Shown: in pieces, positions 1 to 54,181 of the stretch | Numbering within the stretch: the first letter of the stretch is position 1 | Layout of the letters: each line of letters begins with the position of its first letter | DNA from: Phoronis australis | Taxonomy: Eukaryota; Animalia; Phoronida | DNA: 64,000 nucleotides | Assembly: GCA_002633005.1 (NCBI GenBank) | Contig: NMRA01000078.1 | Coordinates: 629,868-693,867 of the forward strand | Direction: 5' to 3' | Notes under the pieces: model-generated | Seen by the model: only the letters and a program-made list of their open reading frames with translations | What the model was told of the DNA's origin: nothing | Database searches by the model: none | Program-made: the position numbers and the translations under genes

Positions 1-28
1 TTGAGCTAACGAGTATTTTGTTCCTAGG

Positions 29-4306: not shown

Positions 4307-4417
4307 GTGTCTTGAATAATGCAGTTGTGGGCAGTGAATCAGAAGATGGACTTTTACGGAGGGTCTTCAGTGGTGCATTATCAAGGAAGATACTTGAGCG
4401 GAGTGCGAGGGATATAG
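4307..4417 (+). CDS. Paralog A putative propeptide exon (VLNNAVVGSESEDGLLRRVFSGALSRKILERSARDI)
   Basis: ttgtag| acceptor, |gtaagg donor, 111 nt open, phase 1-1, ends in R-S-A-R; no counterpart seen in B. Confidence 0.55.
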
Positions 4418-4639
4418 GTAAGGGAAACGCAGCATGGTCATCTTAGGGGTACAGGCTGAAGTTAAGATTGGTCTGCTGTGAGTATTGCTCGGTGTGACAG
4501 TCGCTCAGTCCGGGGGTGAACTGCTTGCGCTAGTGGTGTCAGTCTTGCTCAACGTCATGCAGCGCCATCACCCGTCGAATGAAGTTTTCAAATTTTACCA
4601 ATTCTTTTATCGATTGAGCTAGCCTTGTATATAACCCAA

Positions 4640-4960
4640 CATCATCCTATATTGATACTCAGGGTGGTGTCAATACATGTACTCATGGTATGAAGTCAGC
4701 CACCTAACGCCATCATCAGGCTCAGAGTGGTATCATGCATGTGCTGATGGTATGAAGTCAGCCACCTAACGCCATCTTGAGGCTCAGGGTAGGCCTATAC
4801 ACGAACTGAAGGTGTGAAGTCAACTACCTTATGTCATCACGACTCTTAGGGTGGTACCGTACATGTGCTGATGGTATGAAGTCGGCCACGTAATGCCATC
4901 ATGAACCTCCAGGTGGTTTCTAATACTGGTAGTATTAAACCATCAACCAACACCACCATA
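4640..4960. repeat. ~60-bp minisatellite, about 5 degenerate copies
   Basis: Recurring gtgctgatggtatgaagtcagccacctaacgccatc at about 60-bp period. Confidence 0.85.
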
Positions 4961-6180
4961 TGTTGATGGGTGACATCACAATATAGATTTATAATCTGGA
5001 GCACCGTTAAGTTCAAGATTCAGTGAAAAACGAGCTCCAAGTAACTGTGAGGAATTGGTCTCGGTTATCCCATTATTGTTTCTTGATAGGCCGTCTGGAA
5101 TAGCCTACTTGGGACGGTCAAAATTCCAGAGCAAAATGAAATTTTTTCCCCGTATGATGAAGATTTCACTCCTTGTTGAACATATTTCTCCGAGTTTGAT
5201 TCTTTGCGGTTGCGACTACTATCAGTACTGCTCTTGAGTTAATGAAGAAGTTGCAAAATGCTTAAAAATTATATATGCACCACATTATTTTTGACATTTG
5301 ATATTTTTGTCACTTGACCTTGACATGTCATTCTAATTTGACTTTTCTGAACCTACCTTTTATTACTGTGTAAGCATTCCATCTTCATCACCTACATGTA
5401 CAGTATAATCTCGCCTGTTCAAAACATAATATGGCTGACAGCTGAAATTTTACTTTTTTCATACTGGCATAAAATACATACCGTGTCTAACTTTTGTATG
5501 GTATCTATTACAGGGTTTTATGAAAATTTGTGGGCACTCATAACGTAAGGATACCTTGAAAAGGGGAAAGGGTAATTTTGGATATTATTTTTCTCTGCAA
5601 TCGATGAGACTTTATTGTTCTTGTTGGAGTGAGTCTCAGCCTTAATTATCCTTTTTTGTAGGAAATGACCCAGTTCATTCTTGACCACTGTCAAGTTCCC
5701 CTTCTCGTGATTGGCGTTTCTCTTGTGACAACTATGTCTTGTATCGGTACTTGTAATAAACTGTTTTCAAATGTGAACAAAGTCGTCAGACAACTTTTTT
5801 TTGTTCAGTCACTCCATTTTAATCGTGTTTTCAACTATAAAACCACTTTCTAGTGATTACACATGTGATGCTGTTTTATCCTTGCAATGTGTGTTTTTTT
5901 CACTTGTGATGTTATTTTGTTTTTGTAATATGGGCTGCATTCAGTTGTGACATCTTTCACTCTTGTGGTGTGCAGTTTTCACGTGACAGTTTATCTAGGA
6001 GTCCACCTCTTACGTCTGACAATTTTTATTTCTATGACGTGCATTTTCCACGTGTAATTTCTGCCATGTGCGGTTTTTTGTGACTACTTATACTGTCGCA
6101 ATACATTGCTTTCACATGTGAGAATTTTGATTTTTGCATCGTTATGTTTACCCTAACATAACCAATCTTGATATTTGCAG

Positions 6181-6339
6181 AAGATAGGTCTGACATTGGT
6201 CAACCAAGTGTGCAACTCGATAGGTGCCATCCCAACTTCTGTCACCAATATTCCCCCGAAATTCCCCGTGGTGGAGATATACGGATATCTAGAAGGGACC
6301 AGTGCCTTGCTCATCAAGGAAAGGAGTGCTTATCTACAG
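6181..6339 (+). CDS. Paralog A Cys-rich N-terminal exon (…CHPNFCHQYSPEIPRGGDIRISRRDQCLAHQGKECLST)
   Basis: tttgcag| acceptor, |gtattc donor, 159 nt, phase 1-1; same Cys spacing and same donor as B exon 32643-32789. Confidence 0.8.
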
Positions 6340-7397
6340 GTATTCGCTGTTCATCTGTAAATGGCCAACTCAACGAATAAATGGATCAAACGTTTTGTCA
6401 GTAATTTGATTGTGCTGAGAGGATTTTTCTTATTTACGAGCACCGTGTAAAAACAAATTGATTTGAAGACATTGTTCTGTTGATTTTTTTCCAGAAATAT
6501 TCACATTGAGTTTTTACAGGCACATTCCCATACATTTAAATTCGCTACTACCAAAAGCTGTTTTGTTAACTGTGGTTAACAGCAAATTTAAGCGTTAGTG
6601 TCCCCATCAACTTTTCGATACATAGTTCAGCAAAGTTATAGCCAAGTAGCGCTACCCCGTTGGTCATATACGTTGCTGTTCTTGCCAGTGCTTGACATCA
6701 AGGGTTGGCTATTTGTTTTATATTGTTGCATGATTTTTTTTGGTTGAAATTAAACCTTCCGCAAACCCTTCTTTCATTGTAAAACTTGATTTTGCTTGGA
6801 CCACTTTCGAATTATGAAAATGACCTCAACTTGTTCCTTACTCAAATTTTGCATGATTTTGTGGCTTGGAAAGAACCTCAGACTCCATTTTTGTTTTACA
6901 TCAGGCTTGACAGTGTGGGGAAGGGTCACGACACTTGACCTTAGTGGGCTACTTGTCTCAGCTTTCAACAACATTGCATGCACATAGTAAATTGATACAG
7001 TTTTTTATAATTCGAAGTGACAGCTCTCACCTGTTTCACCAAACAGAAGTTGAAAAACTTTAAGCTGTTGGGTATTCCTGAAATGTGTAAAAGTATACCG
7101 GGATAATCGACCACTCGTTCAACAGCTGGTGCTGATAAATAAAGATCCCTGTTTTAACATTTGAATAGCTTGAAAGCAGAAAATAGTCCGTCCACATTCC
7201 TCATTTTGTGCATTTTGACCTGGTTCCTGCTAATTCCACTCTGCGCCACTCAGCGAATTTTGAGTGGTCCATTCCTTTTGAAACGCGAACAATTATCTCC
7301 AGGAAGAACTACACACTAGACAGTCGCACTGTGTATGGTGTAGTGCACAGTCTGCTTGTTTTAATTTCCATAGAGTCAATTCTTATTCCTTTTGCAG

Positions 7398-7495
7398 TCA
7401 CCAGCTCCCCACCACTGAAGATCACCACAGCACAAACCACTCCTGTGCCTCCTAAAGTGGCGCCCACTGTTGCCACGGTTGTCAGCAAAGACGAT
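7398..7495 (+). CDS. Paralog A short Thr/Pro-rich mucin exon (TSSPPLKITTAQTTPVPPKVAPTVATVVSKDD)
   Basis: ttttgcag| acceptor, |gtaggt donor, phase 1-0 as in the B mucin exons. Confidence 0.75.
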
Positions 7496-7559
7496 GTAGG
7501 TATAAGCAGTGTTTATGCTTAGGTGCCATGCTGGGGTGCCTCCTGCAGATTTGAGCTCT

Positions 7560-8070
7560 ATCCTGATGGGCTGGGCAAGCAGGACTGGGCGATATTTTTG
7601 GATTGTAGGTGGTGGCCATAATTGGAAGCAGCTGGCAATCTGCTGGTCCTCAAGGAAATGCTGACCAGTATCAGTATCAGTATCAAACGATTTCACTCTG
7701 TGGTCCACTGATGTTGTGTGACAGAGATGATCTGCATGGAGGAATTTTGATTTCATGAGGGCACACGGCATGGTCCACAGTGGTAGTCACTTCCTGTTTG
7801 AGGCTCCTGTTGACCGATGTGACACTTTTCATCTGGATACTCATCAAATCGGCATCACGAATAGACTTGAACATTAGTTAATCTGAGACTTCCCGCTTAT
7901 GATTTTGACATGAACTCGAGCAAAGCTCTTCCTTTGGTAACGCTTCACTTGTTTTTGTCTTCCTGATTGCATACATGTGTAAAGCATTGGGCAGCATGCA
8001 TGCTGCGTCAGGCCATTTGTCACGCTGAAACTCGATTTGCTTTAAGTGCTTTGCAGACTGACGCAAGTTG
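7560..8070 (-). mobile_element. Possible degenerate RTE-type LINE 3' fragment
   Basis: Higher-GC intronic patch; minus-strand peptide ...TTVDHAVCPH...SLSH resembles an RTE C-terminal Zn motif. Weak. Confidence 0.3.
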
Positions 8071-8294
8071 AAGATCCATAGGTCCTGTAAACCAATCCAC
8101 TAATTTGTAAATCAAGACTATGATGGCTTTTGAAGTTTTAATTAAAATCCACTGGTTGTTAAAAGTGCCTACATATGGTCTTTAATATAGAAAATTCCGT
8201 GATGGTGAACATGCTCAAACTAGCCTCTGGAGCAACACGGGATGATTGAGAAACAAATCCGTGTCTGGAATTTTATCTTCTTTTTTATTTGCAG

Positions 8295-8354
8295 GCAAAA
8301 CACAGTGTAAGGATTGTGATGAGGTCTGGTTCAAAGTCACACTCCCAAGATTAT
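8295..8354 (+). CDS. Paralog A SEA-like domain exon 1 (AKHSVRIVMRSGSKSHSQDY)
   Basis: tttgcag| and |gtaagg, 60 nt, phase 0-0; homologous to B exon SKQSVRIVVKTPGSVSPTETD. Confidence 0.8.
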
Positions 8355-8712
8355 GTAAGGATTTTTTCTATGTTTGCCCGATCTTGGCTATATGCTGGTT
8401 CATTACATCTGGATTAGTTAAGATGCTGAATAAAAGACCTTACCCCTGTCACCCCTCAAAAGTTTGAATCACGCTTTAATGCCCATTTTCAAAGACAAAA
8501 AGGATTGCTAAAATTACCGCTTTTCAGGACGCTTGCTGCATTGTTGCAAGTTTCCCAAATTTATCAAATGTTTGGTGACAGCTGAACAGTGCTAGTCATG
8601 CCAACCATAAGGTAAAGTTTTCTTGTAGTTTTTAATGTTGTTGATAAAATAGACAAAACGAACTTCTACTTGTTGACTATATTGCGTCCTTGCCATGTGA
8701 ACCTTATTTAAT

Positions 8713-9069
8713 AGGGCCATCCCGGATTACACGACGGTAGAACTTTCCGTTGTCCTGGAGATAAGAAAGCGCTTACTGAGCTCGTTTTGGAACTCAGGCA
8801 CATCTCGTTGATAACGGGAAGTCGTTCATGGATATTTGACCAGTTTATCAAACTTTGTCACGTCAGCACAGTAGTAATACTTCGTTGGCATTGGAAGGAC
8901 GAACAGAGTAACACGACTGAGTAAAACTTTTAAGAATCGGTCAACAAAAAATAACCTAAGAAACTTCATTGGCACAAAAACGAGACAGCAAATGTGTCTG
9001 ACGGATGTTAAGGCATTGTGCGTAAAAACAACGAGTTTCCAATGTCCCTGTGTAATGCAGGACGGCCCT
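8713..9069. mobile_element. MITE with ~20-bp terminal inverted repeats (Harbinger-like termini)
   Basis: agggccatcccggattacac ... gtgtaatgcaggacggccct. Confidence 0.65.
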
Positions 9070-9229
9070 TTTGTTCAACTCCACGACGTTGTCTCAAGCG
9101 AGACGAAATACCAGACAACTTATTTGTGTGCATCACTGTATTAAGTGTTTTGAATTATTGACTTCCGTTATTTTTCTCACTATCAAGAGCTTGGGATACT
9201 GTACCTGATGCAAGATCGGATTGCTGCTT

Positions 9230-9739
9230 ATTATAAGTTAAGGCTACTTAAATGTTAATGAAAGGATTTTCCAGCTGAACATGTCATGTATTATTTAAAG
9301 ATAACAACACATAGGGTTGTAATCGATTGGCTACATATTTTATGCTTTTTTGACTTAGCAGGATTTTTGCATCATATACTGGGGAACCCAATGTTCGTCC
9401 GCCTAAGCACAAAACCGACTTCCTGTTGTACTCACCGAATTATTCCACTTCAAAGTTATGATCTGAATAGGATTCGATTTAACTCTCACAGATATACCGC
9501 ATTCATCGATTCGGAAGTTTTCTTTAATTTGTGCCGAGTTATTTCAAATGTGCACTGCCTTCGGCAGCCATTTTATTGTGACACCTAAGNATTATAAGTT
9601 AAGGCTACTTAAATGTTAATGTACGGATTTTCCAGCTGAACATGTCATGTATTATTTAAAGATAACAACACATAGGGTTGTAATCGATTGGCTAGATATT
9701 TTATGCTTTTTTGACTTAGCAGGATTTTTGCATCATATA
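9230..9739. other. Contig join (single N at 9590) with ~150-bp duplicated flank
   Basis: 9230-9378 is repeated almost exactly at 9591-9739; the first copy continues into unrelated sequence at 9379-9589. Confidence 0.85.
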
Positions 9740-10084
9740 TCTGTTCCAACTCTGTTTGGAAAACTGGTACGTCAAACCTGTCGTCTTTTCTATTATATAC
9801 TGTAGGTACATGTTTTGAGTACTTTGTGCGTTGAGCTCCAATGTTGAAAAATCTTGCCTCTTGTTAACAACTGTTGAGTAATCTTGAGAAAGATTGCTTG
9901 CTAGTAACATAATTCAAGCTGACTAACGTTGCACTCTCACTGACTAGAGTACTCCATCACCTGTTTGCGCGTGTCCACGTAGCTTGCGCAGCACACTTAA
10001 GTGCGCTAAACTAAAGACGTCCGCATCATTGCAAGCAAGGACATTTGAGTTTATTGTAAAAATTTGAATGAGAAAGGCTTAAAA

Positions 10085-10375
10085 ACTTAAACGATATTGG
10101 CCAAGTATAACTAATATAGACCAAGCATAAATAATTGTGGCTTAGGTTAAATAATATTGGCCTGTCTTAAAAGTATTGGCTTATCTTAAGTAATATTGAC
10201 CTGGCTTAAGTTTTATTGGAACATCTGAAGTAAAATGGGCCTAGCTTAAACAAAACTGGCGTAGCTTAAATAGTATTGGCCTGTCTTAAATGTTATTGAA
10301 CTAGCTTGAATAATATTGGCATAGCTTAAATAACATTGGCTTAGCTTAAATAATGTTATATTATGCTTTAAGCTT
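10085..10375. repeat. 20-bp minisatellite (consensus ~ taaataatattggcctagct), about 14 copies
   Basis: Visible 20-bp periodicity. Confidence 0.85.
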
Positions 10376-10531
10376 ATATTACTCAGTAAAATTCAATCAA
10401 GCTTGGTGTCCATGCTCATCCTAGACCAGGAAACGTAATTTCCAGCACGGGGTTCATCTATAAATTCAACTTTGTGTTCTTTTTTCATCATGATTACTTG
10501 AACTGGTTGTCATGATTGCGTTTATTGACAG

Positions 10532-10724
10532 GTGGTGACGATAATAAATCACCTACAGTTGGTACTCAACTGGCTGTACTCCCAATTCCGGAAAGAGGTG
10601 AGATTCCAACGGGCGACTGACATTAGTGATGACATAGAGATTTTGATGCTGCCATCTTCTCCTAAAGAGCTGCCAGATGGGTCTCTAGAGATTGACTTTG
10701 TGGCTAAGAATAAAACGACCAATG
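10532..10724 (+). CDS. Paralog A SEA-like domain exon 2 (VVTIINHLQLVLNWLY...PDGSLEIDFVAKNKTTN)
   Basis: gacag| acceptor, G|gtagta donor, phase 0-1; clearly homologous to B 44377-44548. Confidence 0.85.
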
Positions 10725-11682
10725 GTAGTATTTTTAACCTTTCCAGCTAATATGCTAGATTTGCAATTTATTATTTTCAAAAGTTGATTTTGCCCACTTT
10801 ACTGTTCTGGAGATCGACATATTTTCAAAAAATGGATTTTTCTCTCCTAACTTTCAAAATAGGTTTCTTTATTCCATTAGAAGCATGTTTAAGATTATAT
10901 CTTTCTAGCACTACTCCAAGGACAATGAGACAGCACCATTTGTTTATCTGGCTCATTCAACTGCTGCAGCACCTCCTTGTGGCCCAAAGAAACTTATCGT
11001 CCGCCATTCACCTTGGGCGCATTGAATGTCCCGGCTTTGCTCTCGATAGGAAGAGGGTGGGGTTTACGTGGAAACCTCATTATGTATAGCCCATAGATTA
11101 AGATGTCTATGGTATAGCCGCAGTTGAGTGAATACCCATAATGCATGTGTCGGCTGTCACTCTCTACGGCCACCATTTAGGTGGTGGTGCACCATCAAAA
11201 ATAAAAACTAAGCAATTCAAATTAAATTCCTTTAAGTTTGAAAATATTTGGAGTTCTGTTGAACGAGCATAATTTGGACTCAAGTTTGTCTGAACTAACT
11301 ATTAGTTAAAATCTGTTTCGTGAAGTTTTTTAATAAAATAAAGCAGAATGATTGTCTTTAATAAATACTGTAACTAATATATCTGTGAATTAATGAGATG
11401 TGTTGACCGGAATGTTGGAACTTTGGTGCACTGTTCCAAATAGTCTTGCTTAAGTTACTGGTGACTGTTTATCACGTTGAAAAAAATTGGAATGAAATTA
11501 AGTCCTGCACTGTATTCATTCCTCCAACTGAAAACCTTGATCAGTTAGGCCACAGTGTTTGACACTATTTATGATCAGTGAGCTTGGTAGTTCTAATATC
11601 TATATCCACCATCACAGCCCTGGTGGTGTGAAAAGGCAGGATAGTGTTCTGTTGAATTGTAATAAAAGATTTATTTATCCAG

Positions 11683-11750
11683 AAATTATCCCGGAAGAGA
11701 AACTGATGAAGATACTAAAAGATCCTGAATTTAAGAAGGCGTTTGAAAAA
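11683..11750 (+). CDS. Paralog A SEA-like domain exon 3 (EIIPEEKLMKILKDPEFKKAFEK)
   Basis: tccag| and |gtgagt, 68 nt, phase 1-0; same length and phase in B (45624-45691). Confidence 0.85.
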
Positions 11751-12391
11751 GTGAGTTATTTACTTTACATGGTGATGGTAATCTTTCATACGCATAAAAC
11801 TCTTAAAGTTAACAAATTATAAATCCTCAGAAGGAGTCAGTCTGCTCTGTTGGGCGAAATTCACGAGTTCCAGAAGTTCTGTATCTACATTTTCTTGCGT
11901 TATTTCCGGTTAAATACATATTTAGGTAGGCGCATCTTTTTGTGAAATTGCCAATATCCAGAATTGGTGTCTTAGCATGAAACACCCACTAGGATGTCAC
12001 CTGACGCGGCTGAAGGGCTAGCAACTGAATTTTCGTGGGGAACTAGGAAGTGTTCAAATTAAACCAACTTTAAGACGTCCCGTCTCTTTTAAGTTAAATC
12101 TCCTCGCAGGCAACACTTACTATAAGTTATTGTAGCTCATGTCATTGTGTAAATGATCCTTCAATTTAGAATTTCCTCATATGTTTTTCAACAAAAGTAA
12201 GAATAAAAGAAAGGCTTCATTGTCACCAAGATTTGTAGCCGGTAGCTGTCACCATAAAACAGGTGCTGCCAGCTTGTATTGATGTAGTTTGAAAATAATA
12301 TGTGCTCCTCCTGAACTTATTTCGCAGATGTCCTATGTAGTAAATCAGATGACTATTAAGCCCGGGTCCATGTGCCTGCTTTTCTCTATAG

Positions 12392-12616
12392 GAAGGTTAT
12401 GAGTTGGTGTCATATGGCCCTGATCCCGGATTGGGTAAACCGACGCCTGATGCGACCACTGGTGATGACGATGAGACGGTATTTGAGGCACACATGGGTC
12501 TGTGGATCTCAATGATGGTTATAGCTGCCATCTGTGTCATCATCATTATCATCGGCATAATCTACATGTGCTGTCGTCAGCAACGATATGGTTTCTTGAC
12601 ACCCCGCACAGGAAAG
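12392..12616 (+). CDS. Paralog A stalk plus transmembrane exon (EGYELVSYGPDP...GLWISMMVIAAICVIIIIIGIIYMCCRQQRYGFLTPRTGK)
   Basis: ctatag| and |gtaact, 225 nt, phase 0-0; ~24-residue hydrophobic helix followed by YMCCRQQR. Confidence 0.9.
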
Positions 12617-13566: not shown

Positions 13567-13791
13567 GAAGGTTATGAGTTGGTGTCATATGGCCCTGATC
13601 CCGGATTGGGTAAACCGACGCCTGATGCGACCACTGGTGATGACGATGAGACGGTATTTGAGGCACACATGGGTCTGTGGATCGCAATGATGGTTATAGC
13701 TGCCATCTGTGTCATCATCATTATCATCGGCATAATCTACATGTGCTGTCGTCAGCAACGACATGGTTTCTTGACACCCCGCACAGGAAAG
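13567..13791 (+). CDS. Second copy of the paralog A TM exon (likely other allele; S>A and Y>H differences)
   Basis: Same splice sites; lies inside the N-joined duplicate. Confidence 0.6.
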
Positions 13792-14731: not shown

Positions 14732-14879
14732 GGGCTAGTGAATGATCCTGAGAGGGGTGAGAACGGTCAGGGCAACCCTATTCCTGATGATGAAATTGTA
14801 AAAGATGAACAACCCATGTTAGAGAAGGAGGTGCCTAATGGAAATGGTGTGCCAATCACAAAGCTGGATGAAGAGAATT
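14732..14879 (+). CDS. Paralog A cytoplasmic exon 1 (GLVNDPERGENGQGNPIPDDEIVKDEQPMLEKEVPNGNGVPITKLDEEN)
   Basis: tcacag| and T|gtaggc, phase 0-1; homologous to B 53398-53542 including the donor context. Confidence 0.85.
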
Positions 14880-15352: not shown

Positions 15353-15426
15353 ATTGAGTGGAACCTATCGATGAGTTAGCCCATGAAGACAAGGACAAAT
15401 CAGAAGGGGATTATACGAGACTGTAA
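15353..15426 (+). CDS. Paralog A last coding exon Y*VEPIDELAHEDKDKSEGDYTRL, with in-frame TGA at 15355-15357
   Basis: tttgcag| acceptor, 74 nt to TAA as in B (54108-54181); the sequence after the stop (ctgtaact.tggtgacgaa) is conserved with B. Confidence 0.8.
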
Positions 15427-24299: not shown

Positions 24300-24697
24300 T
24301 ACCGCATACCACAAGGACATGGATATTATGCACTATGCACACACGGTTTTTACAAAATCATGATTGCATGACACTAGAACGAAGGAAATCCTGTAACAAA
24401 ATTAACCATCACGTAAATTCGTCACCACAGTTCCAGTCTGGTATCTCCAGCTTCAGGCACCTCTTTTTTTCAACATATATCTCATCGATAGGCAACATCC
24501 AACCTGCAAACGCGTTAGCAAAGTCAATGACGATGACAAAAGAGCAGTTTTAAAATGCAAAATAGCAACATTGGTCGCATCACTTCTCCATTACCTCAGA
24601 GTTGAAATTTAACCCGTGTCGCCAAATCACGTCAAAAAATCTCATTTGCAACACCAGACATGCTTGTCATGACCAATGCAAAATGAGTGACAGCTAC
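24300..24697 (-). pseudogene. Inverted orphan fragment of the podocalyxin-like gene: end of last intron, last exon (24431-24503) and start of 3' UTR
   Basis: The reverse complement reads tttgcag|GT TGG ATG TTG CCT ATC GAT GAG (WMLPIDE) ... GAT ACC AGA CTG GAA, with a 1-nt deletion in the A-run and TAA>GAA; it aligns with B ~53910-54300. Confidence 0.8.
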
Positions 24698-30384: not shown

Positions 30385-30433
30385 ATGGGACCTGAAAAGG
30401 TGCTGATTGTAGTAGGTTTTCTATACATCCCAG
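30385..30433 (+). CDS. Paralog B exon 1, signal peptide (MGPEKVLIVVGFLYIP)
   Basis: ATG in aggATGg context, hydrophobic core, strong donor CAG|gtaagc, phase 1. Confidence 0.7.
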
Positions 30434-32642: not shown

Positions 32643-32789
32643 GATGCAGCCAGCCAGGCTCGGCTTTACCACTATGCCATCCGGACTATTGTGAAGATTT
32701 TCCCGATCCAATCTTGTCCATTGTACGTGGAGATATTACACCTAGGCAACTATGTTATTTATCACAAAGTGACCAATGCCCGACAATAG
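32643..32789 (+). CDS. Paralog B Cys-rich exon (CSQPGSALPLCHPDYCEDFPDPILSIVRGDITPRQLCYLSQSDQCPTI)
   Basis: gtgcag| and |gtattc, 147 nt, phase 1-1; Cys spacing identical to A. Confidence 0.8.
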   Translation, partial: DAASQARLYHYAIRTIVKIFPIQSCPLYVEILHLGNYVIYHKVTNARQ

Positions 32790-33950: not shown

Positions 33951-33954
33951 CTTG

Positions 33955-34327: not shown

Positions 34328-34435
34328 ACTGAAGTGGATAAATGTTTAAGCTTAAAACGTTTTGCAAAACCCAGCTCTGCAAATGGTGACTACAGTGACT
34401 TTTTAGTAAGACTCCGTTGTTATGAATTTCTGCAG

Positions 34436-34743
34436 GTGAAAAAGGTACTGAACAGCATGCAACAACACACGTTACGCCTGGCGATACAACCATTCCCAAT
34501 ACGACTGTTGCTGCGGCAACTGTTGTTACAAACAGGGTTGCAACCACCGGGGCAGAATCAACAACTGCAGCTACAACGGTTGCCCAGGCAACTGTTGCTG
34601 CTGCTACAATTGGTCAGACAACTATTGCTGAGACGACTGCTGCTGAGACGACTGTTTCGGAGACGAGTGTTTCTGCGACTACAATTGCTGAGATTATTGT
34701 CAATGAAGTAACATCTACTGTGAAGATTCCAAAAACCGCTCCA
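34436..34743 (+). CDS. Paralog B short mucin exon (~102 aa, Thr/Ala/Val-rich)
   Basis: tctgcag| and CCA|gtatgt, open in the phase-1 frame (EKGTEQHATTHVTPGDTTIPNTTVAA...VTSTVKIPKTAP). Confidence 0.8.
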
Positions 34744-35329: not shown

Positions 35330-35402
35330 GCAGTTGATGTCGCTATGGTTACTACTGAGGGTCCAACAACACAGCAAGATGTCAGACTATCTACACAACA
35401 AG
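35330..35402 (+). CDS. Paralog B linker exon (AVDVAMVTTEGPTTQQDVRLSTQQ)
   Basis: tttcag| and AAG|gtacag; phase 0-1 is exactly what is needed to join the two mucin exons in frame. Confidence 0.65.
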
Positions 35403-41340: not shown

Positions 41341-42932
41341 TGGATCCAAAAAATACATCAATCGAACAGTTTGCAACGACCCAAGTCCCAGCTGGCGAAA
41401 CAATCGTTGCCAATAAGACAGTTTCTGATACACCTGTTACCACGGCAACTGTAATCAAGGCAATTGTTGATGCCGATGCGACTACTGCACCCGTAACAAC
41501 GTCCATAGCAACGACTCCTGCTGGTACTGTTTTAAAGACAACTGCTGCTAAGACGACAGTTGCCGAGACGACTGTCGCCGAGAAAACTGTTTCTGAGACA
41601 CCTGTTGCTACGGCAAGTATCACCAATACAACCGTTGCTGCCTATATGACTACTGTACCCGTGACAACTTCTTCTAGAACGACTTCCGCTACTACTATTG
41701 CACAAACAACTGCTGCTGAGACGGCTGTTGCCAGGAAGACTGTTTCTGAGGAATCTGTTGCTACGGCAACTGTCACCAATACACCCGTTGCTGCCGATGC
41801 GACCACTGTACCCGTAACAACTTCTACTACAACGACTCGTGCTACTATTATCGCACAAACAACTGCTGTTGACACAACTGTTGCCGGGACGAATGTCGCT
41901 AAGACATCTGTTGCTACGGCAACTGTCACCAATACAACCGTTGCTGCCAATGCGACTACTGTACCCGTAACGACTTCTACTACAACTACTGCTGCTACTA
42001 CTTTTGCACAGACAACTGCTTCTGAGATAAATGCTGCCGAAACGACTGTTGCCAGGACGAGTGTTGCTGGGACACCTGTTGCTACTGAACCCGTAACAAC
42101 TTCTACTACGACGACTGCTTCTACTATTATTGCACAAACAACTGCTTCTGAGACCACTGTTGCCGGGAAGACTGTTGTTGAGAGATCTGTTGCTACGGCA
42201 ATTGTCACCAATACAACCGTTGCTTTAGATATGACTACTGTACCCGTAACAACTTCTACAACAACGACTGGTGCTACTACTATCGCACAAACAACTGCTG
42301 CTGAGGTGACTGTTGCCCAGACGACTATTGCTGGGACGACTGTTGCTACGGCAACTGTCACCAATATAACCGTTCCTGACGATGCGATTACTGTACCCGT
42401 AACTTCTACTACAACGACTGCCGTTACTACTGTTGCACCAACAACTGCTGCTGAGACGAATGTTTCCGGGACGACTGTTGAGACACCAGTTGTTCCGGCA
42501 ACTGTCACCAACCCAACCGTTGCTGCCTATGCGACTACTGTACCCGTAACAACTTATTCTACAACAACTGGTGCTACTACTATTGCACAGTTAACTGCTG
42601 TTGAAACATCTGTTGCCGAGACACCTGTTGCTATGACAACTGTCATCAATACAACCGTTGCTGCCGATACGACTACTGTACCTGCAACAACGTCTACTAC
42701 AACGACTGCCGCTGTTGCCATAGCACAGACAACTGCTACTGAGACGACTGCTTCCGATACAACTGTTGCCGAGACGACTGTGGTCGGGACTACTGTTGTC
42801 AAGACGACAACTCTTGCCGAGACGACTGTTGCCGAGTTCACTTTTGGAGAGACGATCGTTGCGGAAACTACAGCTGCTCAGACTACTTTACCTGAAGTTG
42901 CATCTACTATGAAGGTTTTGGAAAACACTCCA
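41341..42932 (+). CDS. Paralog B long mucin exon (~530 aa, about 9 copies of a ~51-aa Thr-rich repeat)
   Basis: ctgtag| and CCA|gtatgt, 1592 nt open; repeat TTVPVTTSTTTT.ATTIAQTTA.ET.VA...SVATATVTNTTVAA with NTT sequons. Confidence 0.9.
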
Positions 42933-43509: not shown

Positions 43510-43572
43510 TCAAAACAAAGTGTTAGAATTGTCGTGAAGACGCCTGGTTCAGTGTCACCCACAGAAACAGAC
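43510..43572 (+). CDS. Paralog B SEA-like exon 1 (SKQSVRIVVKTPGSVSPTETD)
   Basis: ttttcag| and |gtaagg, phase 0-0; homologous to A 8295-8354. Confidence 0.8.
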
Positions 43573-44165: not shown

Positions 44166-44309
44166 GCGCCTCTCATACATGTGTCGTTGCAGTTTACGAT
44201 GCACAAGATGAGCGCCTCTCATACGTGTATCGTTGCAGTTTACGATACACAAGGTGAGCGCCTCTCATACGTGTATCGTTGCAGTTTACGATGCACAAGG
44301 TGAGCGCCT
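44166..44309. repeat. 46-bp tandem repeat x3 with internal inverted repeat
   Basis: gcgcctctcatacgtgtatcgttgcagtttacgatgcacaaggtga repeated; gtgtatcgt/acgat(a/g)cac stem. Confidence 0.9.
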
Positions 44310-44376
44310 ACCAAGGCACTGCGTTCCTTCTGTAATCATCAGTACAATGTTCTAAATGTTGTGTGTTTGTTACCAG

Positions 44377-44548
44377 CTAGAGAAGATTGTAAGTCACCTA
44401 CGGTGGGTCCTCAACCTTCTTTTCCTCCGGTCCCGGGCTGCTGACATTGATGGTGACTTGGAGATTTTGGTGCTAACGCCATCTCCCCAAATACGGTCGG
44501 ACGGATCTGTAGAGATAGTCTTTATAGCAAAGAACAAAGCGACGAACG
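44377..44548 (+). CDS. Paralog B SEA-like exon 2 (LEKIVSHLRWVLNLLF...SDGSVEIVFIAKNKATN)
   Basis: taccag| and G|gtaaca, phase 0-1; homologous to A 10532-10724. Confidence 0.85.
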
Positions 44549-45623: not shown

Positions 45624-45691
45624 AAATTATCCCGAAGAAGGAACTGATGAAGATGATACAAGATCCGAAATTTAAGAAGAAGTTGGAAGAA
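45624..45691 (+). CDS. Paralog B SEA-like exon 3 (EIIPKKELMKMIQDPKFKKKLEE)
   Basis: gtgcag| and |gtgagt, 68 nt; the intron motif catggtgatggtaatctttcatacgca is shared with A. Confidence 0.85.
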
Positions 45692-46117
45692 GTGAGTAAA
45701 GAGATTTATTGACGTCACATGGTGATGGTAATCTTTCATACGCACGGTCGTTCGTTACAATTCGTCGTTTTGCTGTCAATTTGCACCTTCGTCTTTTCTA
45801 CCGAAATTTTAAGGACCTAGAACTGTCTTTCAATAGCCTAAAAGCACACTGGCTAATGCAATGAAGATTAATTTTTCCTCCACTGCAACCATTCACCACT
45901 ATCTTCACTACAGTTCAAACGATGAATCGGCGATTTTCACATTTTTAGACATACTAAAGCTCATTACCACATTTTAAATCTTGGAGGAAACTAGTTTCCA
46001 GGCAACACACTTTTTAACCAATCGTATCAATTTTACTTTGAAATCCAGACCGAATGAGCATTTTCACGGCATCCTGCTTTCTCTGCACTAAAACTCGACA
46101 GAGTGAAGTTTGAACAA

Positions 46118-48746
46118 TAGGCCATAGTCCATTCGACTCTAGGAAGCCCAGAAAATCACTTCCATGGCCACTTTTTGGGGCAAGATAATTTTGATGTTTT
46201 TAAGTTCAATAAGTACTATACTTTAAGAATCTAAAAAGTTCCCAAGGTTTGACTTGCACGTTTTCGAGAAATTTGACCTCAAAAATCTGACTTTTTGCAA
46301 AATTTTAAACAGAAAACCAATATTCAAAAACCAACAACACTAGACAAAAACTGAATGATAATCTGATTGGGCTTTGTTCAATTGAAGTTATTGAACAAGG
46401 AAAGTGATAAATAATATGACATTAGGCGGAAAATTGCTCAAAAAAGACCAGCTCCTCCTGTTGGCCAGAAAACATGTTGCTGTATTCTGAACTCCTACAA
46501 AAAGAACTATACTGTTAACCATTTGGAACTTGATAAAGATTTGACATCACAACCTACATGTGAACACCACACATTTCCAATGCTTCTGCAACAAATTTTC
46601 TGTCATCAATTTCATTATCATAATTAACATTATCCCATATTGCAGTTCACTGTCAACTGTCACAGGGAACGACACACCGAGCAGTGTCAATCATGAGCAT
46701 GATAAAATGTTGTCCATATTTTCCATTAGGTTGAAAATTTACAGTTCTTTAACAACATAGCATACACTTATTATGTTTCTTCATCCACTTCATCATCATT
46801 TATATCATCATTATTGTCATCAAAAGTTGTTTTTTGACAGAGACACCGTATTCACACAGTCTGTACAGTCACACAACTTAGAACATGGCATGCCTGACTT
46901 CAAACAAGAGCGCAAGTTTTTACTACAACCACTTATTTTACACTTGCTTTGAAAAATAAAGGAATGGTCATGTTGGCAATAGTTTTGTTTGAAGTTGAAA
47001 AGCGTCTTCTTTACCGTAGAGCTAAAATTTCATTTGAAGCTTCCTGTTTTAAATAGTACATAATTGGAAGAGTAGTAATTTTCCTTTGCTAAAAACTCCA
47101 ATTCAAGAATCTTCAAAATGTGAGATACTGAAATCTGCACAACATTTGAATTTTCACGATAAATAAATTACAGAACGCAGGCAAAATGTCTCAAATTCCA
47201 AACTGCTCATGATTTTACATATCTCAAAATAGGCTAGAAGTTCATAAAAAGCAGTGCTGAGCACTCACATGTAGGTAAAAACTACTACCAGTATATTTGA
47301 GATTGAGACCACTATTACTACAAAATTATCAAGCAAAATAATTTTTATTTTGTGACCTAAACTAAAGATTATTTACCATAAATGACACCTTTTCAAATTA
47401 AGAATAGGTAGGCCTATTTACAATTGAATGTTTGGAACTTGGATAGGTTTTCAACTTTCTTTTGTTTGTGAAGTTCCCCTGTGATGAAATTTGATTTGTT
47501 GCAAAAGGTTCATTGTGGTGGCAAGACATACACGGTATATTTCTTTGAGCACTGATAAATGTACATGTAACTGACGGTGACAATGTCCTTAATTTTCTAG
47601 TGGGCTCAACATTATTTCCATCATCAGCTTGGTCTTTTCTTTTTAAGAGCTCTTTCAATTTTAGTTACATCCGTTCAGTGTCTGTAACACTGCTTGTCAG
47701 ATAGAAGGTTGCACGCACCAAGCCTAAAAATGGGGGGCTCGAGTTTTTGAGAATGTGAACATTTATTAAGATTCACGGGGTACTTCAGAGCTACGAATTG
47801 TGCGTTCGTCGATTTTTTTTAGTTCCTACCTTTTAAGTGAACTTTTATTTCATTTGTTGTTTCTTTGAGGCAAACCTTTTACCTACTTTACCAAATGGGG
47901 GAGGCTCGTTCAAGCCCCCGAGCCCCCCCCCCTCCGCTGGGTGCACGCATGACAAGAGCTCTGTTTTTCACAAAATAAATCTTAAAAACTTATCAGCAAT
48001 GATACTTCTCTTGCACTCAATGTTGATACGTTTGTTTGCAGTAGCCTTAGACCAGATAATATCTGAAAATTCCAGCTCAGAAATTTGAGCAGAAGCTGAC
48101 ACATGAATGCAACAAGGGGCAGACATCTTGCCAGCCTATTGTGAAGTCGCACACTTGTTGAATAATTCATGGTTTCAGCAGAGTCCTAGCTGTACCAAAA
48201 CTGTTCTTTGCGAAACACAAAATGATTCAGGAATGTGCCAAGAATTGTTTCAGTACGATGACACTCGTGGCCACTTGATTTGGCTTTCCTCAATTCGTAA
48301 CTGCTGCCCGCTGGTTTTTTAGCCTTGGCCCTAGGTAATTGCCTGTTACTTGCAAACCCATCCAAGAATTAATACTATCCAATGTAGTCAGTAGCAGTAA
48401 ACAAGCTAGCTAAGCCAGCAGGATAACATCAGCTGACTGTCCTCTGATGATGGTTTTCATGCCAAGCAGACGACTTTTGAAGGGGAAAGATATGGGCACA
48501 ATATTTTCCTGGTATTTGATTGGCTTTTCGGATCATTTTGCGCTGACACCTGGTGGCTAACATATTAGTTAAGATTATATTTTTCCAACTTTTAAATTAA
48601 AATTCTTACTAAACGTGCAAGTGTATTCTTGGGAACTTTTTTGAAATTGACTTTTGAATATCTGTAGATGGGTTAAATGCAAAGTTCCGTTGCATCCAGA
48701 AAGTGGCCATGGAGGTGAAAGATAGGAGAGCTGGGACTATGGCCTA
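46118..48746. mobile_element. 2.6-kb non-autonomous DNA transposon, Academ-like termini
   Basis: CAA|TAGGCCATAGTCC ... GGACTATGGCCTA|CAA: 13-bp TIR, 3-bp target duplication, plus subterminal inverted tccatggccactt/aagtggccatgga. Superfamily assignment is inferred from the TAG termini and 3-bp TSD. Confidence 0.7.
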
Positions 48747-49170
48747 CAAGTCACCAAGCAAAATTCATACACGTTATTGCCAAACGCACGCGCTATGACA
48801 CTTTTGTGATAGTGATGTGTAAGTGCTTTTTATTGTAAATATCACGAAAAGATCGTGTACCGCGAGTGGCACAGAGAACTAGTTCGTAGTTCGAATTGTG
48901 TAAACTGGATGATTTTAAATCGTCTTAAAAGACGTATTTTGAGTAGAGCGAACGGGGATGTGGTGGAAACGATTGCCAAGATGTCGGTGACTATCCAAAT
49001 AGCCTCGAAGTTTAACGGGAAAGTCTAAATATTTATTCCAAAGTATGGTTAACCCGCAAAATTTATTGCAAAATCTGACATTACTACTTGTGGTAATGTA
49101 CACGATAACGTCACACAGATATGGACGAACATAGTATCGAATGAACACTATCATAAATGCAAACTTCTCA

Positions 49171-51402
49171 AGAGTTCCAACCTTGACCTTGCGTCTCAAA
49201 AAGAATTTTTAATACATCTTTAGAGATTTAATAGCATTTAGTATACCTGTTGGTAAGAAACAAGGCAAAAATTTTTAGAGAAGTATTTTTTTGTTATCCG
49301 GTTTGTGCGTAATGGGTCTCCGCCGTTGTTTTTACCAGTGAGATACTGAGGAGTTATGAGGAAATCCGCCGAGAGCCGTCTTTTTCAGACATCAAGTGAG
49401 TTGGCTGCAACATAACTGAAAACCTCTCTGTGTTCGGATTTCCAAAGGACGTGAAAGTTGCACAGAAATGGCAACGATTTGTGCGCGGTGGAACATGTGA
49501 TCAGTCGGGAGCCACACTTTGTTCGGCATATTTCAGACAAGGAATTGTGTTTCAACCAAACACAAAAGCGGAGTTACAATGAAGGACTCGCCACCTTGTA
49601 AGTGTATTTCCAAATTTTATAAATAACGAACAAACTGCTTCCTTCTAGAGCGAGTGATGCCAAGTCCTCGACCGCGGTCCAGATCGAATGATACAAACAC
49701 GTTAGCTTATACATCAATGCATTGTGTGTAGACCGTGCTAATAGCTCACTTTTTTCGCTAGTCAATGTGACGTCACCGGAAGGGGGTTCAAAACCCGCCA
49801 TATTGCTCTTGTTTTGCCCCGAGTCTTTGCTACACACGCTAAATCTTACTGGAGTTCTTGTGGTGAATTTTACGCTTAAAACGTTATCACAACATAAGAG
49901 ATGGTAGATGGGTCGTGGAATAACTGTGAATGGACGAAGAAAATCTGATTTTTTTATGTTGTGCGAAGCTGTGAACGGACTGAAATTGAAACTCAACCCG
50001 CTCTAGGCCTGAATGCCGCAGGCATACAGCTTTCCAGGGGCGATAGCATATCTCCATAAAAACTTACTCACTTCAAAATACAGCAAGTAAAATCAAATGA
50101 AACATGCATATGTGCACATGGAGTTATAATTAACACATACCCTAACTCTGGATACAATTTAGTCTACAAATAACTTGAACATATCCATGAAAACAGCGGT
50201 TCGCTCTAGTTTCTCTCACCGGGCGCTTTTTTGAGGAAGTTACGTGAAATCACGCATGTTGACGAACAAAAAGTCCAAGGGACACAAATGTTACACTTGA
50301 TATTTTCTCATGCTATTTTACAAGAGTCAGGCGCCAGGTCTCTCGTTTTGCTCAGTCTCGCGCTAGACTTTGCCTTATACTCACCTGACTCAGTTGAAAT
50401 ACTTTGTGGTTATCGCGCGCGCGGTCTAAGTTAACAGTAACCACAAAGTGGAGTTTGAATTCTTCGCCAAAGTCACCTGAATTCCCGTAGTTATGCTTCA
50501 TCGAAGATATATTTAGAAGCAGAAAGGATCACTGCAGAAAGTAAGCGCCTTTTTAGGTGACGATTTTAGGTGTAAAATGTATTTTTAACGAGGTGAAAAC
50601 TTAATCAGTGAGCGAATTTCGCCTACCGCCCGTTTAAAATACACCGTACGAAATTAGTAAAGAACGCGATAGAACGTATTGTAGTGCGAATCTGAATTTC
50701 ATTTGCCATAACAGCAATGCTTATTTGGCATTTTTTTGAAGAAAATAACAGAATACGCTCTGCTAGTATTGGGCAAATGGCCAAACGACAAGCTTTTGCC
50801 CCACTTCCCTTGACGTCACAGTTAAGTCTCGGATAATCTCGCGTTATTGTTATAAACTCGAAAAAAGACTATTCTATCATGGCAACAGTGATTACGAGTG
50901 ACCCAGGTTTACTGTGACCTTTTTCAGTAATTATTAACTGTCTGTTTTGTGAATATTGATCACCTTTGGTTCAGTTGGTTGTGGCTCACATACGTCTGCG
51001 GCATTTCTCCTGCAAGTGGATCGAGTTCATGTGGTTTCAAAGGCAACGAAATTTTGTTAAGTGGCAAATCAAATTCGTTGTCTGGTTCTTGTAGTGCCTG
51101 ATTATGATACTCGCGCTGTCCTCTTTCTTTGCATAAGAATTGTACAATTTCCGTTAAAAATCGCCATCGTCTTCTGATCTGCTGTGCTCCGTCATTGCAG
51201 TTGCCGAGTTGCCAATTGACGAAACGTCTGCCACCATTACATCATTTGGCGGAAAACTTGGAAATAACAATTTTTTCTTCAAATTTAAAAAGTTCATAAC
51301 TATTTATCATACAAAGCTGTTATTTAGTTAGATTTTATAGTATCCATTTCATATTAGCTTACTGAAACCTCCAAACCTAAACAAAAGCATGGTGGGAACT
51401 CT
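49171..51402. mobile_element. Second Kolobok-like copy carrying a nested ~1.1-kb insertion (~49741-50870)
   Basis: Begins agagttccaacc and ends tggtgggaactct|TTAA; colinear with 39640-40546 on both sides of the insert. Confidence 0.75.
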
Positions 51403-52542
51403 TTAAAGCGGAGGAGTCACGTGGCTCAATCGGATGTCCCAAAAGTGAGATAAAACCAAAACGAAATGATTTCATAAAAAGTTGTAACAGCGTTTTGAGG
51501 TTCCATCTCGAACCTTTGTCTGAAAACAAAATTCAACCATGTTACTAATACGTTGTTTTCCTATGAATGGTTCTCACTTATTTCGATCAAGTTTGACACA
51601 TATACTTGGTTATGTGATCTAACTAATTGCAGTTTGGAATAAAATTAAAAAAACACTACGTCTACTTTTGTATTTATATTTATGTTTAAGTTCTCTATAT
51701 TCTCCGTACTGTAGAACTAGCTTGTATTTTAGCTCTGTATTTTTATTTCGTAGATTTTAAATTTGTCGGATAATAGCACTTGTGCTTACGTTTCATTGTT
51801 AAATCTCACCGACTTTTAAATAAAGATTATTACTACATTACTACTACAAGGCTAAAAATCGTTCATAGTCTGCCATTTTTTCACGATGTTGTAAAGCTAA
51901 CCAATGACTGTCGGGGTTACATCAACCAACGCGAAAGCGCGTACCACTGCGTGACACCTGCGTGCTGACTAGGCACGGAGGGGAACAGCGAGTAATATAA
52001 TAAGCCTTTAAAGGCGAAGGCAACCTTTTTTCATGTCATTTTTAGCAAAAATAAGGTTCGTTGATTATCCCAGACATAATTGTCACTTATTTACTGCTTT
52101 TCGTAATTCAATTAATTACTCGTCGTCTACTCCGAAAGTGACGTTTTGGGAGGCAAGAATTTCGCGCCAATTTCTTTTCATATAGTCTGACTGTGAGAGC
52201 AGTCGGGTCAGTCATTGTTCTACCTCGGTTGTGATAAGTTCGGTCGCCGTTTGCTTTTGCTTACGAGTCAGTCAACATGCCACGCTGTTGCTGCGTACTG
52301 GGGTGTACTCATTATCGTCTCGCGTACAGACGAAGAACTATCCCACTTGCCCGAGTGTCCCGCGACACACTCCCACTGGAGGGTGTTCTGAGCACCCAAA
52401 CTGCTTACATCCCGCCGTGGGACTCCCTCGCCACACACCTGGCACCTTCTAAATAGCTCCAATACAAGTCCACAATAAACTTATCAAACTTAGGCTCACC
52501 GATCTGTTCATTGGATGACGAACTGTCCTCTTCACTGGGTGT

Positions 52543-52703
52543 NNNNNNNNNNNNNNNNNNNNNNNNNNNNNNNNNNNNNNNNNNNNNNNNNNNNNNNNNN
52601 NNNNNNNNNNNNNNNNNNNNNNNNNNNNNNNNNNNNNNNNNNNNNNNNNNNNNNNNNNNNNNNNNNNNNNNNNNNNNNNNNNNNNNNNNNNNNNNNNNNN
52701 NNN
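52543..52703. other. Assembly gap (161 N)
   Basis: Run of N. Confidence 1.
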
Positions 52704-53397
52704 ATGCCTCTGTAACTACGGGATAACGAATCAGAATTTGGAAGTTTTTTTGTGAAATCCTCCTTTTCTGAAGTTGCTTTGATTTTTGAGAACATTAATG
52801 ATGGCTTAGAAAATATGTGGTCACATGACTGTTGACAGCTGGGCATGATTTTTTTAGTAATTACTTTGTGTGATTAACGAGTTCTAGGAAATATCCTATT
52901 TCATTTGGTAAAGATTGCATTTAAAATTTGCATTGAAAATACAAGCTATTTTTTTACTGATATAAAGGCAAAATGTAAGCAGTTTCCATTAAACTGTTAG
53001 AAACCCAACTTCCGCTAAGAAAAGCTTTTGATTCATATCAAACTTTGATAGGAATGTTTAGCATGACATCATTTTGACGTCATTAAGACGTCTTGGACCC
53101 AGTGTGATTACATAATTATTATTCCCGGGTTCAAATTGTGTCATCTACTGCCATGACACGTCATCACTAAATATCCGCGTCATGAAACTGGCCCTAGATG
53201 GTTCCTTTTTAAATTAGAAGGGTTAAGTAGGAACTGTCAGTTTGCTGTGGCTTGTTACGTATCCAACAAGAGACACTACAATCACTTTCTGTTGTTTCCC
53301 ATCGTGGTCTCAAAACGGAACACAGTATCCACAGCATTGTCCAATGCCATGTGTTCTATACCTGAGTGCCTCTACTCATTCTATGCTGGTCTTACAG

Positions 53398-53542
53398 GGC
53401 TTAGAGAGTGAACCTCGGAGTGGTACTGAGAATGGCCAGGGCAACCCCGTTCCGGAGGATGAAATCGTGGGAGATGAGCTATCCATGCAAGAGATGTGTA
53501 AGGTCAACGTCAAGGCAGTCGCGACGCTGGACGAATATAGTG
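53398..53542 (+). CDS. Paralog B cytoplasmic exon 1 (GLESEPRSGTENGQGNPVPEDEIVGDELSMQEMCKVNVKAVATLDEYS)
   Basis: ttacag| and G|gtaggc, phase 0-1; homologous to A 14732-14879. Confidence 0.85.
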
Positions 53543-54107
53543 GTAGGCGAGACTTGTTTTGCATGCGCGCACCCAGCCTTTAATATGGGGAGCTCGAATT
53601 TCCGACGACGTGGACCTTTTACCGACAAAAGAGGCCAAAGGACTGAAAAAATAAAAAAATAAATAAAGTAGGTACCACGTCCAGAGCTGCGCATTGTGCC
53701 TTTGCGCCTTTTTAGTGGACTTTTTGTGTCGTTATCTGGGACTTTTTTGTTTCTCTGAGGCGGACCTTTTCTCCACTTCGCCAACTGGGCGATCAAACTC
53801 TCTGCCTGGCCACGCCCACCGTAGTACTATTGGGGCAGTTCCACAAACATAAAACAAATGTGGCACAAGAGCACTTCCACAGTTAGACCAATGCAATCAA
53901 CTGAGTGACCCATCTGTCACTCATTTTGCGTTGGCCATAACAAGCATGTCTAGGATTGCTTACAAATGAGATCTTTTGACGTGACTTTGCGACACAGGTT
54001 GAATTTCAGCTCCGGTAATGGAGAAGTGATGTGAGCAATTTTGCTATTTTGCATTTTTAAAAATGCTCTTTTTGTCATCGTCTGTGACCTTAGTAATGCG
54101 TTTGCAG

Positions 54108-54181
54108 GTTGGGTGGTGCCAATGGATGAGATGTGTGTTGAAGAAAAAAAGGCGTCTGAAACGGAAGATACTAGACTGTAA
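54108..54181 (+). CDS. Paralog B last coding exon (GWVVPMDEMCVEEKKASETEDTRL*), class I PDZ-binding C-terminus
   Basis: tttgcag|GT TGG GTG GTG CCA ATG GAT ... GAT ACT AGA CTG TAA; 74 nt as in A. Confidence 0.85.

Follow-up and report, generated by a model that had tools for sequence, protein, structure and literature searches.

Two paralogous membrane mucin genes of Phoronis australis belong to an invertebrate family probably related to CD34 and podocalyxin

Introduction

CD34, podocalyxin and endoglycan are known from mouse and human work as a three-gene family, and podocalyxin is needed for the foot processes of podocytes (PMC2193439). Its members are defined by a signal peptide, a mucin region, a compact domain, a stalk, one membrane helix and a charged tail of ~70-90 residues with a C-terminal PDZ ligand, DTHL or DTEL (PMC7692987; PMC2193439). 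The C-terminal motif of podocalyxin and endoglycan is DTHL (PMC2193439; PMC7359396), and vertebrate podocalyxin-family tails bind NHERF1/2 and ezrin (PMC7359396). Work on the origin of excretory organs tracked nephrin, kirrel and ZO-1 in invertebrate filter cells, podocalyxin not being mentioned in the accessible part of that text (bioRxiv 10.1101/2020.11.15.378034). Here we analyze two genes, A and B, found on the + strand of a 64,000-nucleotide stretch of contig NMRA01000078.1 of Phoronis australis (positions 629,868 to 693,867), hereafter the window, and compare them with the CD34 family.

A literature search, outside which subscription papers lay, retrieved no paper on invertebrate CD34-family genes and likewise none calling the family vertebrate-specific. 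In the available sections of PMC2607016 and PMC5787515 podocalyxin appears only in relation to mouse cells or a fish gene list, and those of PMC11136496 and PMC12652124 do not report invertebrate CD34-family genes.

Results and Discussion

A family of invertebrate membrane mucins

Our analysis shows that A and B are spliced and transcribed paralogues of a family of predicted single-pass mucins, which likely shares an ancestor with CD34, podocalyxin and endoglycan and whose products are predicted to be podocalyxin-like. By sequence comparison, both belong to an unnamed family characterized by a mucin region, a SEA-like domain, one membrane helix and an acidic tail ending in [DN]-T-[KRH]-L, and the same comparison places the family in annelid, nemertean, brachiopod, tardigrade, hemichordate and amphioxus. 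A word-based search with the membrane exon of A yielded no relative among 19 candidates. A HMMER scan of 1.84 billion representatives with the same exon gave 12 matches, and the 10 that were looked up include Saccoglossus kowalevskii, Tubulanus polymorphus, Owenia fusiformis, Lingula anatina and a Branchiostoma hybrid. With a profile of six helix-plus-tail stretches 17 proteins were recovered, the new ones including more Branchiostoma entries and Hypsibius exemplaris (E 1.4e-8); no vertebrate was among them, which is weak evidence given that the search was word-limited. Five further family loci came from a metagenome scan. The family entries (Saccoglossus XP_002738036.1, Lingula XP_013416967.1, Owenia CAH1783961.1, Tubulanus XP_074645784.1, Hypsibius OQV11693.1 and Branchiostoma CAH1266208.1) bear database names such as 'mucin-like', 'uncharacterized' or 'hypothetical', and a precomputed PF06365 label is attached to the amphioxus entries only.

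The conserved features of the family alignment are concentrated in the tail, with [NS]P..D[DE]E and the last motif [DN]-T-[KRH]-L, to which protostome-type tails add EAPM.E[KR], NG and GWVVP[IL][DE]. The terminal motif is found in 17 of the 18 sequences, the exception being the Lingula entry; the four deuterostome relatives (amphioxus, Saccoglossus) end in DTHL. Twenty columns are invariant across seven relatives. A preliminary description of the window, made from its letters alone, had matched four motifs of A and B to the tail of human podocalyxin, and a six-frame scan found these on the + strand as placed: YMCCRQQR at 13738 (also at 12563), ENGQGNP..DEIV at 14759 in A and 53428 in B, stop-VEPIDE...DYTRL-stop at 15355-15426 in A, and WVVPMDE...EDTRL-stop at 54110-54181 in B, on GT-AG exons that join in frame. 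As family-wide features [NS]P..D[DE]E, M.E[KR], NG, GWVVP[IL]D and the last four residues stood, and the double Cys did not; 'ENG' was likewise rejected as a family motif, as it is not kept across the alignment.

Two profiles were prepared with the window proteins excluded, one of the tail only (nine protostome-type relatives) and one of the SEA region (seven proteins). The tail profile scored A at 60.3, B at 46.3, the tardigrade at 29.8 and Saccoglossus at 22.4 bits, with none of 1000 shuffles as high (the shuffled A and B tails, 1000 each, reached at most 9.8 and 9.0 bits). The SEA-region profile gave 24.2 bits for A, 22.1 for B, 38.7 for amphioxus and 16.6 for Saccoglossus, with none of 500 shuffles as high. 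Alternatively, acidic tails of low complexity could resemble each other by chance in membrane mucins that are unrelated and form no deep family, as single short exons have no Pfam or Atlas match and 'ENG' is not conserved. However, the window proteins score far above their shuffles with both profiles and the invariant columns would have to be accounted for. The profile scores refute chance for the invertebrate family, so that this explanation concerns the vertebrate link only, and we consider it extremely improbable.

The preliminary description had further taken the host to be an invertebrate. The window has a GC content of 38.7% and an observed/expected CpG ratio of 0.79, and vertebrate genomes are CpG depleted. 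Given this ratio, the protostome-type tail and the fact that the nearest named relatives (Lingula, Owenia, Tubulanus) are lophotrochozoan, a vertebrate host is very unlikely. An origin before the vertebrates had also been proposed, and the presence of relatives in protostomes and invertebrate deuterostomes bears this out far beyond the locus itself.

Some relatives carry additional uromodulin-like D8C, trefoil or F5/8 domains in their ectodomains. An Atlas search with cytoplasmic exon 1 returned no match at 0.8. In the Atlas result for the amphioxus protein, a low-scoring unnamed cluster with cnidarian members (0.87) and nematode DUF8077 proteins (0.84) were also observed, which are possible further relatives.

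Probable relationship to CD34, podocalyxin and endoglycan

The link to the vertebrate family was made through Pfam model PF06365 (cut-off 26.3 bits), published motifs and PODXL splice sites, and it makes homology of the invertebrate family to CD34, podocalyxin and endoglycan appear quite probable. All six amphioxus proteins scanned passed PF06365 as their top family (26.8-35.3 bits), the match covering the membrane helix and the tail jointly up to the last position of the model. Concerning the general plan, B resembles the vertebrate proteins in its predicted signal peptide and large mucin, whereas A has only 32 mucin codons and no signal exon in the window. A single membrane helix after a stalk is shared as well (in the exon 13567-13791 of A only, the exon of B being absent), as is a charged tail with a C-terminal PDZ-type site. 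The proposed DTRL ligand is present in B, the junction leading to it being supported by reads, while A ends in YTRL behind an in-frame stop.

Splice sites of human PODXL have been reported at c.100+1 (phase 1), c.1101+2 (phase 0) and c.1480-1 (phase 0), the last intron lying 11 residues after the membrane helix at 462-482 (PMC12026838). The window genes have phase 1 after the signal exon and the series 0, 0, 1, 0, 0 running from where the mucin ends to a point shortly past the helix, with exon sizes of 60/63, 193/172, 68 and 225 bases across the series; the phases that match sites from the paper are the 1 after the signal exon and the 0 after the helix. Locus L004 shares the phase 1, the 0 and the post-helix 0 introns and locus L003 the last two; both have the remaining tail on one exon and the membrane exon split once more. 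We take PODXL and CD34 to have the same 0, 0, 1, 0, 0 series with similar exon sizes, and c.1101 and three further boundaries are matched on this assumption only.

The fold of the membrane-proximal domain was assessed with AlphaFold models made for the Tubulanus and amphioxus homologues, from alignments with 15 and 11 sequences, respectively, rather than for A and B themselves. Mean pLDDT was 60 and 51, respectively, with values mostly of 70-90 within the domain, which has four strands and two helices and precedes the membrane helix. The closest fold was MAD12 of protocadherin-15 (Z 7.8, rmsd 3.3, 103 aligned; Z 10.4, rmsd 3.1, 107 aligned), and further SEA-type matches were Nup54, CELSR1, IA-2, GPR126 and MUC16. 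Among SEA-bearing surface proteins (protocadherin-15 MAD12, CELSR1, IA-2, GPR126, MUC16 and dystroglycan) the likeness lies in the fold of the membrane-proximal domain (Z 6-10.4), while identity is 6-20% and the ectodomains and tails are unrelated. From these models we infer a SEA fold next to the membrane in A and B as well, and with the Ser/Thr-rich exons this agrees with the ectodomain of mucin plus SEA-like domain proposed earlier. The globular domain of vertebrate CD34-family proteins is said to share a SEA-like fold. Six of nine relatives carry a basic furin-like cluster in the domain, the remaining lophotrochozoan and the amphioxus ones have a dibasic site, which is weaker, and Saccoglossus has none; A carries R-x-x-R in its loop and B has no basic site. 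Sequence searches of the PDB with the last exon, the amphioxus protein and two family profiles gave nothing meaningful.

A different placement is offered by collectrin (TMEM27/CLTRN) and the ACE2 neck (PF16959), which in both homologue models are alike in a ferredoxin-like SEA-type domain directly before a single helix. The family could represent a separate SEA-plus-helix branch nearer to collectrin/ACE2 (or to KIAA1549 or dystroglycan), its podocalyxin-like tail being a convergent PDZ ligand, and the protein would then chaperone or scaffold apical transporters and not act as a podocalyxin. Foldseek returned ACE2 as the first match for both models (E 5.8e-4 and 2.9e-4), and Atlas placed three collectrin clusters first for the amphioxus protein (0.91-0.93, with 169, 158 and 164 shared features) ahead of CD34 (0.88). 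Moreover, the domain has no cysteines, and the SEA region of amphioxus scores 15.2-15.3 bits with PF16959. However, the latter score is far under the cut-off of 27.1, whereas PF06365 was passed by amphioxus, and the SEA exons of the window have no PF16959 match. Run against the PDB with E values of up to 10, the family profiles brought up no ACE2 chain. Atlas, for its part, cautions that agreement is limited to 3 of its 10 top family matches, and the long mucin stalk and the D-T-x-L end of the family, DTHL in its deuterostome members, set it apart from collectrin and ACE2 and suit CD34-family proteins. No CD34-family chain was among the matches listed in four fold searches, which speaks neither for nor against homology, and ACE2 may therefore lead for lack of a competitor. 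We regard the collectrin/ACE2 placement as unlikely and homology to the CD34 family as the better account.

Along with the ACE2 and collectrin rankings, several observations weigh against this homology and against a podocalyxin-like role of A and B. None of 21 non-amphioxus relatives passed PF06365, and the best of the single window exons reached 17.1 bits, for the membrane helix only and behind KIAA1549. None of five tail-only stretches, one of them from amphioxus, was reported by the model. The protostome-type tail profile gave 3.1 and 1.0 bits on amphioxus, with 44 and 358 of 1000 shuffles as high; what connects protostomes with amphioxus is therefore the SEA region together with the helix and Saccoglossus. 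The cysteine-bonded globular domain of the vertebrate proteins is replaced by a compact SEA-like one that has no cysteine in A, B and eight of nine relatives, and the eight-exon layout is exceeded by at least 10 coding exons in A and at least 11 in B. Finally, A spliced to acceptor 15353 has TGA at 15355 in frame, cutting the protein before the last motifs, and no membrane exon of B was detected between 45691 and 53398, the highest profile score outside the two copies in A being 6.8 bits.

The genes differ from CD34, podocalyxin and endoglycan also in an extra phase-1 intron within the tail, a separate small N-terminal cysteine module and, in most protostome-type members, the basic furin-like loop. 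Because of the PF06365 failures, the cysteine-free domain, an exon count other than eight, the Atlas ranking and the share that the helix alone may have in the amphioxus score, the direct assignment of A and B to the CD34 family in the preliminary description is not retained. We place them in an invertebrate family that is quite probably homologous, and not in the CD34 family as defined. The new part is the reach into protostomes, that into amphioxus being already implied by automatic Pfam labels.

Structure and transcription of genes A and B

RNA data comprised three raw runs (X1-X3) and one contig set (X4), which were aligned to 1-17500 for gene A and compared with 34401-54400 for gene B, the first two exons of B (30385, 32643) being outside the aligned stretches. 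The reads are stranded. The exon junctions predicted earlier were supported for A, where at least seven of eight modelled introns are covered (GT..AG, 4-56 reads per run per joint, among 15 of 23 joints listed), and partly for B, with at least two of six modelled introns within 34401-54400 (34743/35330 and 53542/54108, among 15 of 37 joints listed). The features are summarized in Table 1.

Table 1. Exons of genes A and B and associated elements in the window. Read counts x/y/z refer to runs X1/X2/X3.
Feature	Position	Strand	Phase	Basis
A first exon found, unassigned	4307..4417	+	1-1	joint 4415>6179 GT..AG, 4/5/4 reads
A small 4-cysteine exon, homologous to B 32643-32789	6181..6339	+		reads, self-comparison; no Pfam match
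A short mucin exon, 31% Ser+Thr, 32 codons	7398..7495	+	1-0	reads
A SEA-like exon 1 (first strand)	8295..8354	+	0-0	joints 7495>8295, 8354>10532; alignment
A SEA-like exon 2 (helix 1, R-x-x-R loop, strands 2-3)	10532..10724	+	0-1	reads, alignment
A SEA-like exon 3 (helix 2)	11683..11750	+	1-0	reads, alignment
Duplicate of A membrane exon within 1178-base duplicate, probably assembly leftover	12392..12616	+		self-comparison
A last SEA strand, stalk, membrane helix and YMCCRQQR	13567..13791	+	0-0	motif scan, reads, HMMER
A cytoplasmic exon 1	14732..14879	+	0-1	motif scan, reads, tail profile
A last coding exon, ends YTRL; in-frame TGA 15355-15357 where relatives carry Trp	15353..15426	+		
Orphan frameshifted last-exon copy with flanks, 82% like 53914-54278	24334..24693	-		self-comparison
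B predicted signal-peptide exon	30385..30433	+	1	exon model
B cysteine exon, homologous to A 6181-6339 (61% nucleotide identity)	32643..32789	+		exon comparison
B mucin exon, 34% Ser+Thr	34436..34743	+		joint 34743>35330, 3/7/0 reads
B short mucin exon	35330..35402	+		reads; 75 and 67 loose ends
B 530-codon Thr-rich mucin exon, 153-base repeats, 40% Ser+Thr	41341..42932	+	1-0	
B SEA-like exon 1, predicted	43510..43572	+	0-0	homology to A, exon model
B SEA-like exon 2, predicted	44377..44548	+	0-1	homology to A, exon model
B SEA-like exon 3, predicted	45624..45691	+	1-0	homology to A, exon model
161-N assembly gap, likely site of missing B membrane exon	52543..52703	.		
B cytoplasmic exon 1	53398..53542	+	0-1	motif scan, reads
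B last coding exon, WVVPMDE...EDTRL stop	54108..54181	+		joint 53541>54107 GT..AG, 5/5/0 reads

The model of A has nine coding exons in the window. A scan of 1-4306 found no signal-peptide exon, which would lie upstream, and 63 X1 reads run upstream of the first exon found into letters absent from the aligned stretch. The tail comprises 87 residues (21 acidic, 11 basic), and the 3' UTR extends to at least ~16200 (stranded read depth 15185-16352). Because of its in-frame TGA, gene A as assembled may be without its PDZ tail. An AG six bases past 15353 (acceptor 15359) would bypass the TGA in frame; for this eighth intron, no A-type joint among the 15 of 23 listed shows acceptor 15353 or 15359.

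The segment 11780-12957 recurs across an N as 12955-14132, the two 1178-base copies showing 28 differences, and the membrane exon of A is for this reason present twice. In the RNA reads both copies are found spliced to 11750 on one side and to 14732 on the other, and the duplicate probably represents two haplotypes kept side by side in the assembly. A true tandem pair of membrane exons was rejected, given that no joint between them appears among the listed joints and the two segments show so few differences beside an N. A second near-identical duplication, 9230-9378 / 9591-9739, also lies beside a single N and resembles a haplotype overlap in the assembly. Minisatellites of 62, 20 and 46 bases occupy 4658-4904 and 10086-10354 in introns of A and 44165-44309 in an intron of B.

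The model of B between 30385 and 45691 has an open frame of 824 codons and comprises the signal peptide, the cysteine exon, three mucin exons and three compact-domain exons, with a mucin of more than 600 codons and 34-40% Ser+Thr. Ten coding exons lie in the window. The missing membrane exon probably sits in the assembly gap; alternatively, a phase 0-0 exon may have been skipped. Sense-strand depth over the large mucin exon is thin (4-6 in X1, 2-6 in X2), and the majority of reads on the short mucin exon proceed into a 7398-like exon that is foreign to B here. An intron of B contains a fragmented LINE-type retroelement (36541-38400, - strand) with a reverse-transcriptase match (PF00078, 61.5 bits).

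Paralogues and a third version

Self-comparison revealed homologous exon pairs of A and B at 8282/43497, 10610/44434, 11618/45565, 14701/53367 and 15345/54100. Nucleotide identity of the exon pairs is 61-81%, and they are therefore old paralogues, not haplotypes. A tree of 15 rows groups A with B as sisters (99/98); their closest neighbour by path length is Lingula, and no deeper placement is supported. The 3' UTRs (A 16098-16444, B 54372-54754) are 69% alike over ~390 aligned bases, as much as the coding exons, and Rfam gave no match in the window, these UTRs included. The N-terminal cysteine modules of both genes share the pattern C-x3-C...C-x7-C, and neither of them has a match in Pfam.

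A third version, which is not in the window, accounts for the most abundant transcript. At 10572 the reads differing from A number 89 of 100, 65 of 80 and 16 of 32 in X1, X2 and X3. Reads over the last intron (22, 18 and 11, plus one X4 contig) have 33 other letters and encode Trp-Val-Val-Pro-Ile where A has stop-Val-Glu-Pro-Ile. This majority transcript starts at a signal-like exon absent from the aligned stretch and joins a 35330-35402-like exon to a 7398-like exon. A-like and B-like exons are combined in it with others not in the window, and this mosaic suggests exon shuffling or gene conversion among paralogues. A-type and third-version reads occur in all four RNA sets, which favours a third paralogue over an allele. 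With the sister grouping of A and B and the third version in the reads, the local expansion proposed in the preliminary description is upheld.

The third version also bears on whether A and B are functional, since the family may well be homologous to CD34/podocalyxin while A and B are decaying or re-purposed duplicates and the third version is the working gene. This would fit the TGA in A, the absent membrane exon of B, the orphan frameshifted last exon and the third-version reads, which form the majority at 10572 and encode Trp at the stop of A. However, the frames of A and B are otherwise open in all exons, including the one of 530 codons, A-type junctions occur in X1-X3 and the last junction of B in X1 and X2, the stop of A can be bypassed by the in-frame acceptor, and a gap lies at the expected site of the B membrane exon. 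We consider decay or re-purposing rather unlikely, although it is compatible with the relationship preferred here, namely a shared ancestry of the family with CD34, podocalyxin and endoglycan.

Other features of the window

Between A and B, at 18774-19548, four units of ~200 bases, two forward and two inverted and 71-80% alike, form a long imperfect palindrome. On the - strand at 58708-60825 there is a single-exon TRIM gene with RING, B-boxes, coiled coil and NHL repeats and without a filamin match; its 36 database matches, a coral among them, reach only 21-36% identity and gave no help in placing the host.

Proposed function and implications

By analogy with podocalyxin, the Thr-rich stalk, presumably O-glycosylated, would hold neighbouring membranes apart as an anti-adhesive brush, and the SEA domain, perhaps cut at the basic loop in most protostome-type members, would position or release it. 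The class I x-T-x-L terminus would dock on a NHERF-type PDZ adaptor and, through ERM proteins, on actin, and in this way the protein may build and keep open apical surfaces, lumens or filtration slits. The copies would differ in their stalk, short in A and very long in B, and also in PDZ coupling if A stops early. From tardigrade to hemichordate it is the tail and not the ectodomain that is most conserved, and a fixed intracellular partner is therefore indicated.

We tentatively propose, as an idea still open to considerable doubt, that the protostome-deuterostome ancestor had a cysteine-free, SEA-bearing podocalyxin with a D-T-x-L tail, organizing apical membranes and filtration cells through NHERF/ERM. 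If this is true, an unrecognized podocalyxin survives in annelids, nemerteans, brachiopods, tardigrades, hemichordates and amphioxus, and it would join nephrin, kirrel and ZO-1 as a structural marker, so far missing, for an origin that nephridia and kidneys have in common. Such a homologue would supply named genes testable by expression in podocytes, coelomic linings, vessel-like spaces and blood cells, and the family would reveal which tail residues have been retained since the protostome-deuterostome split.

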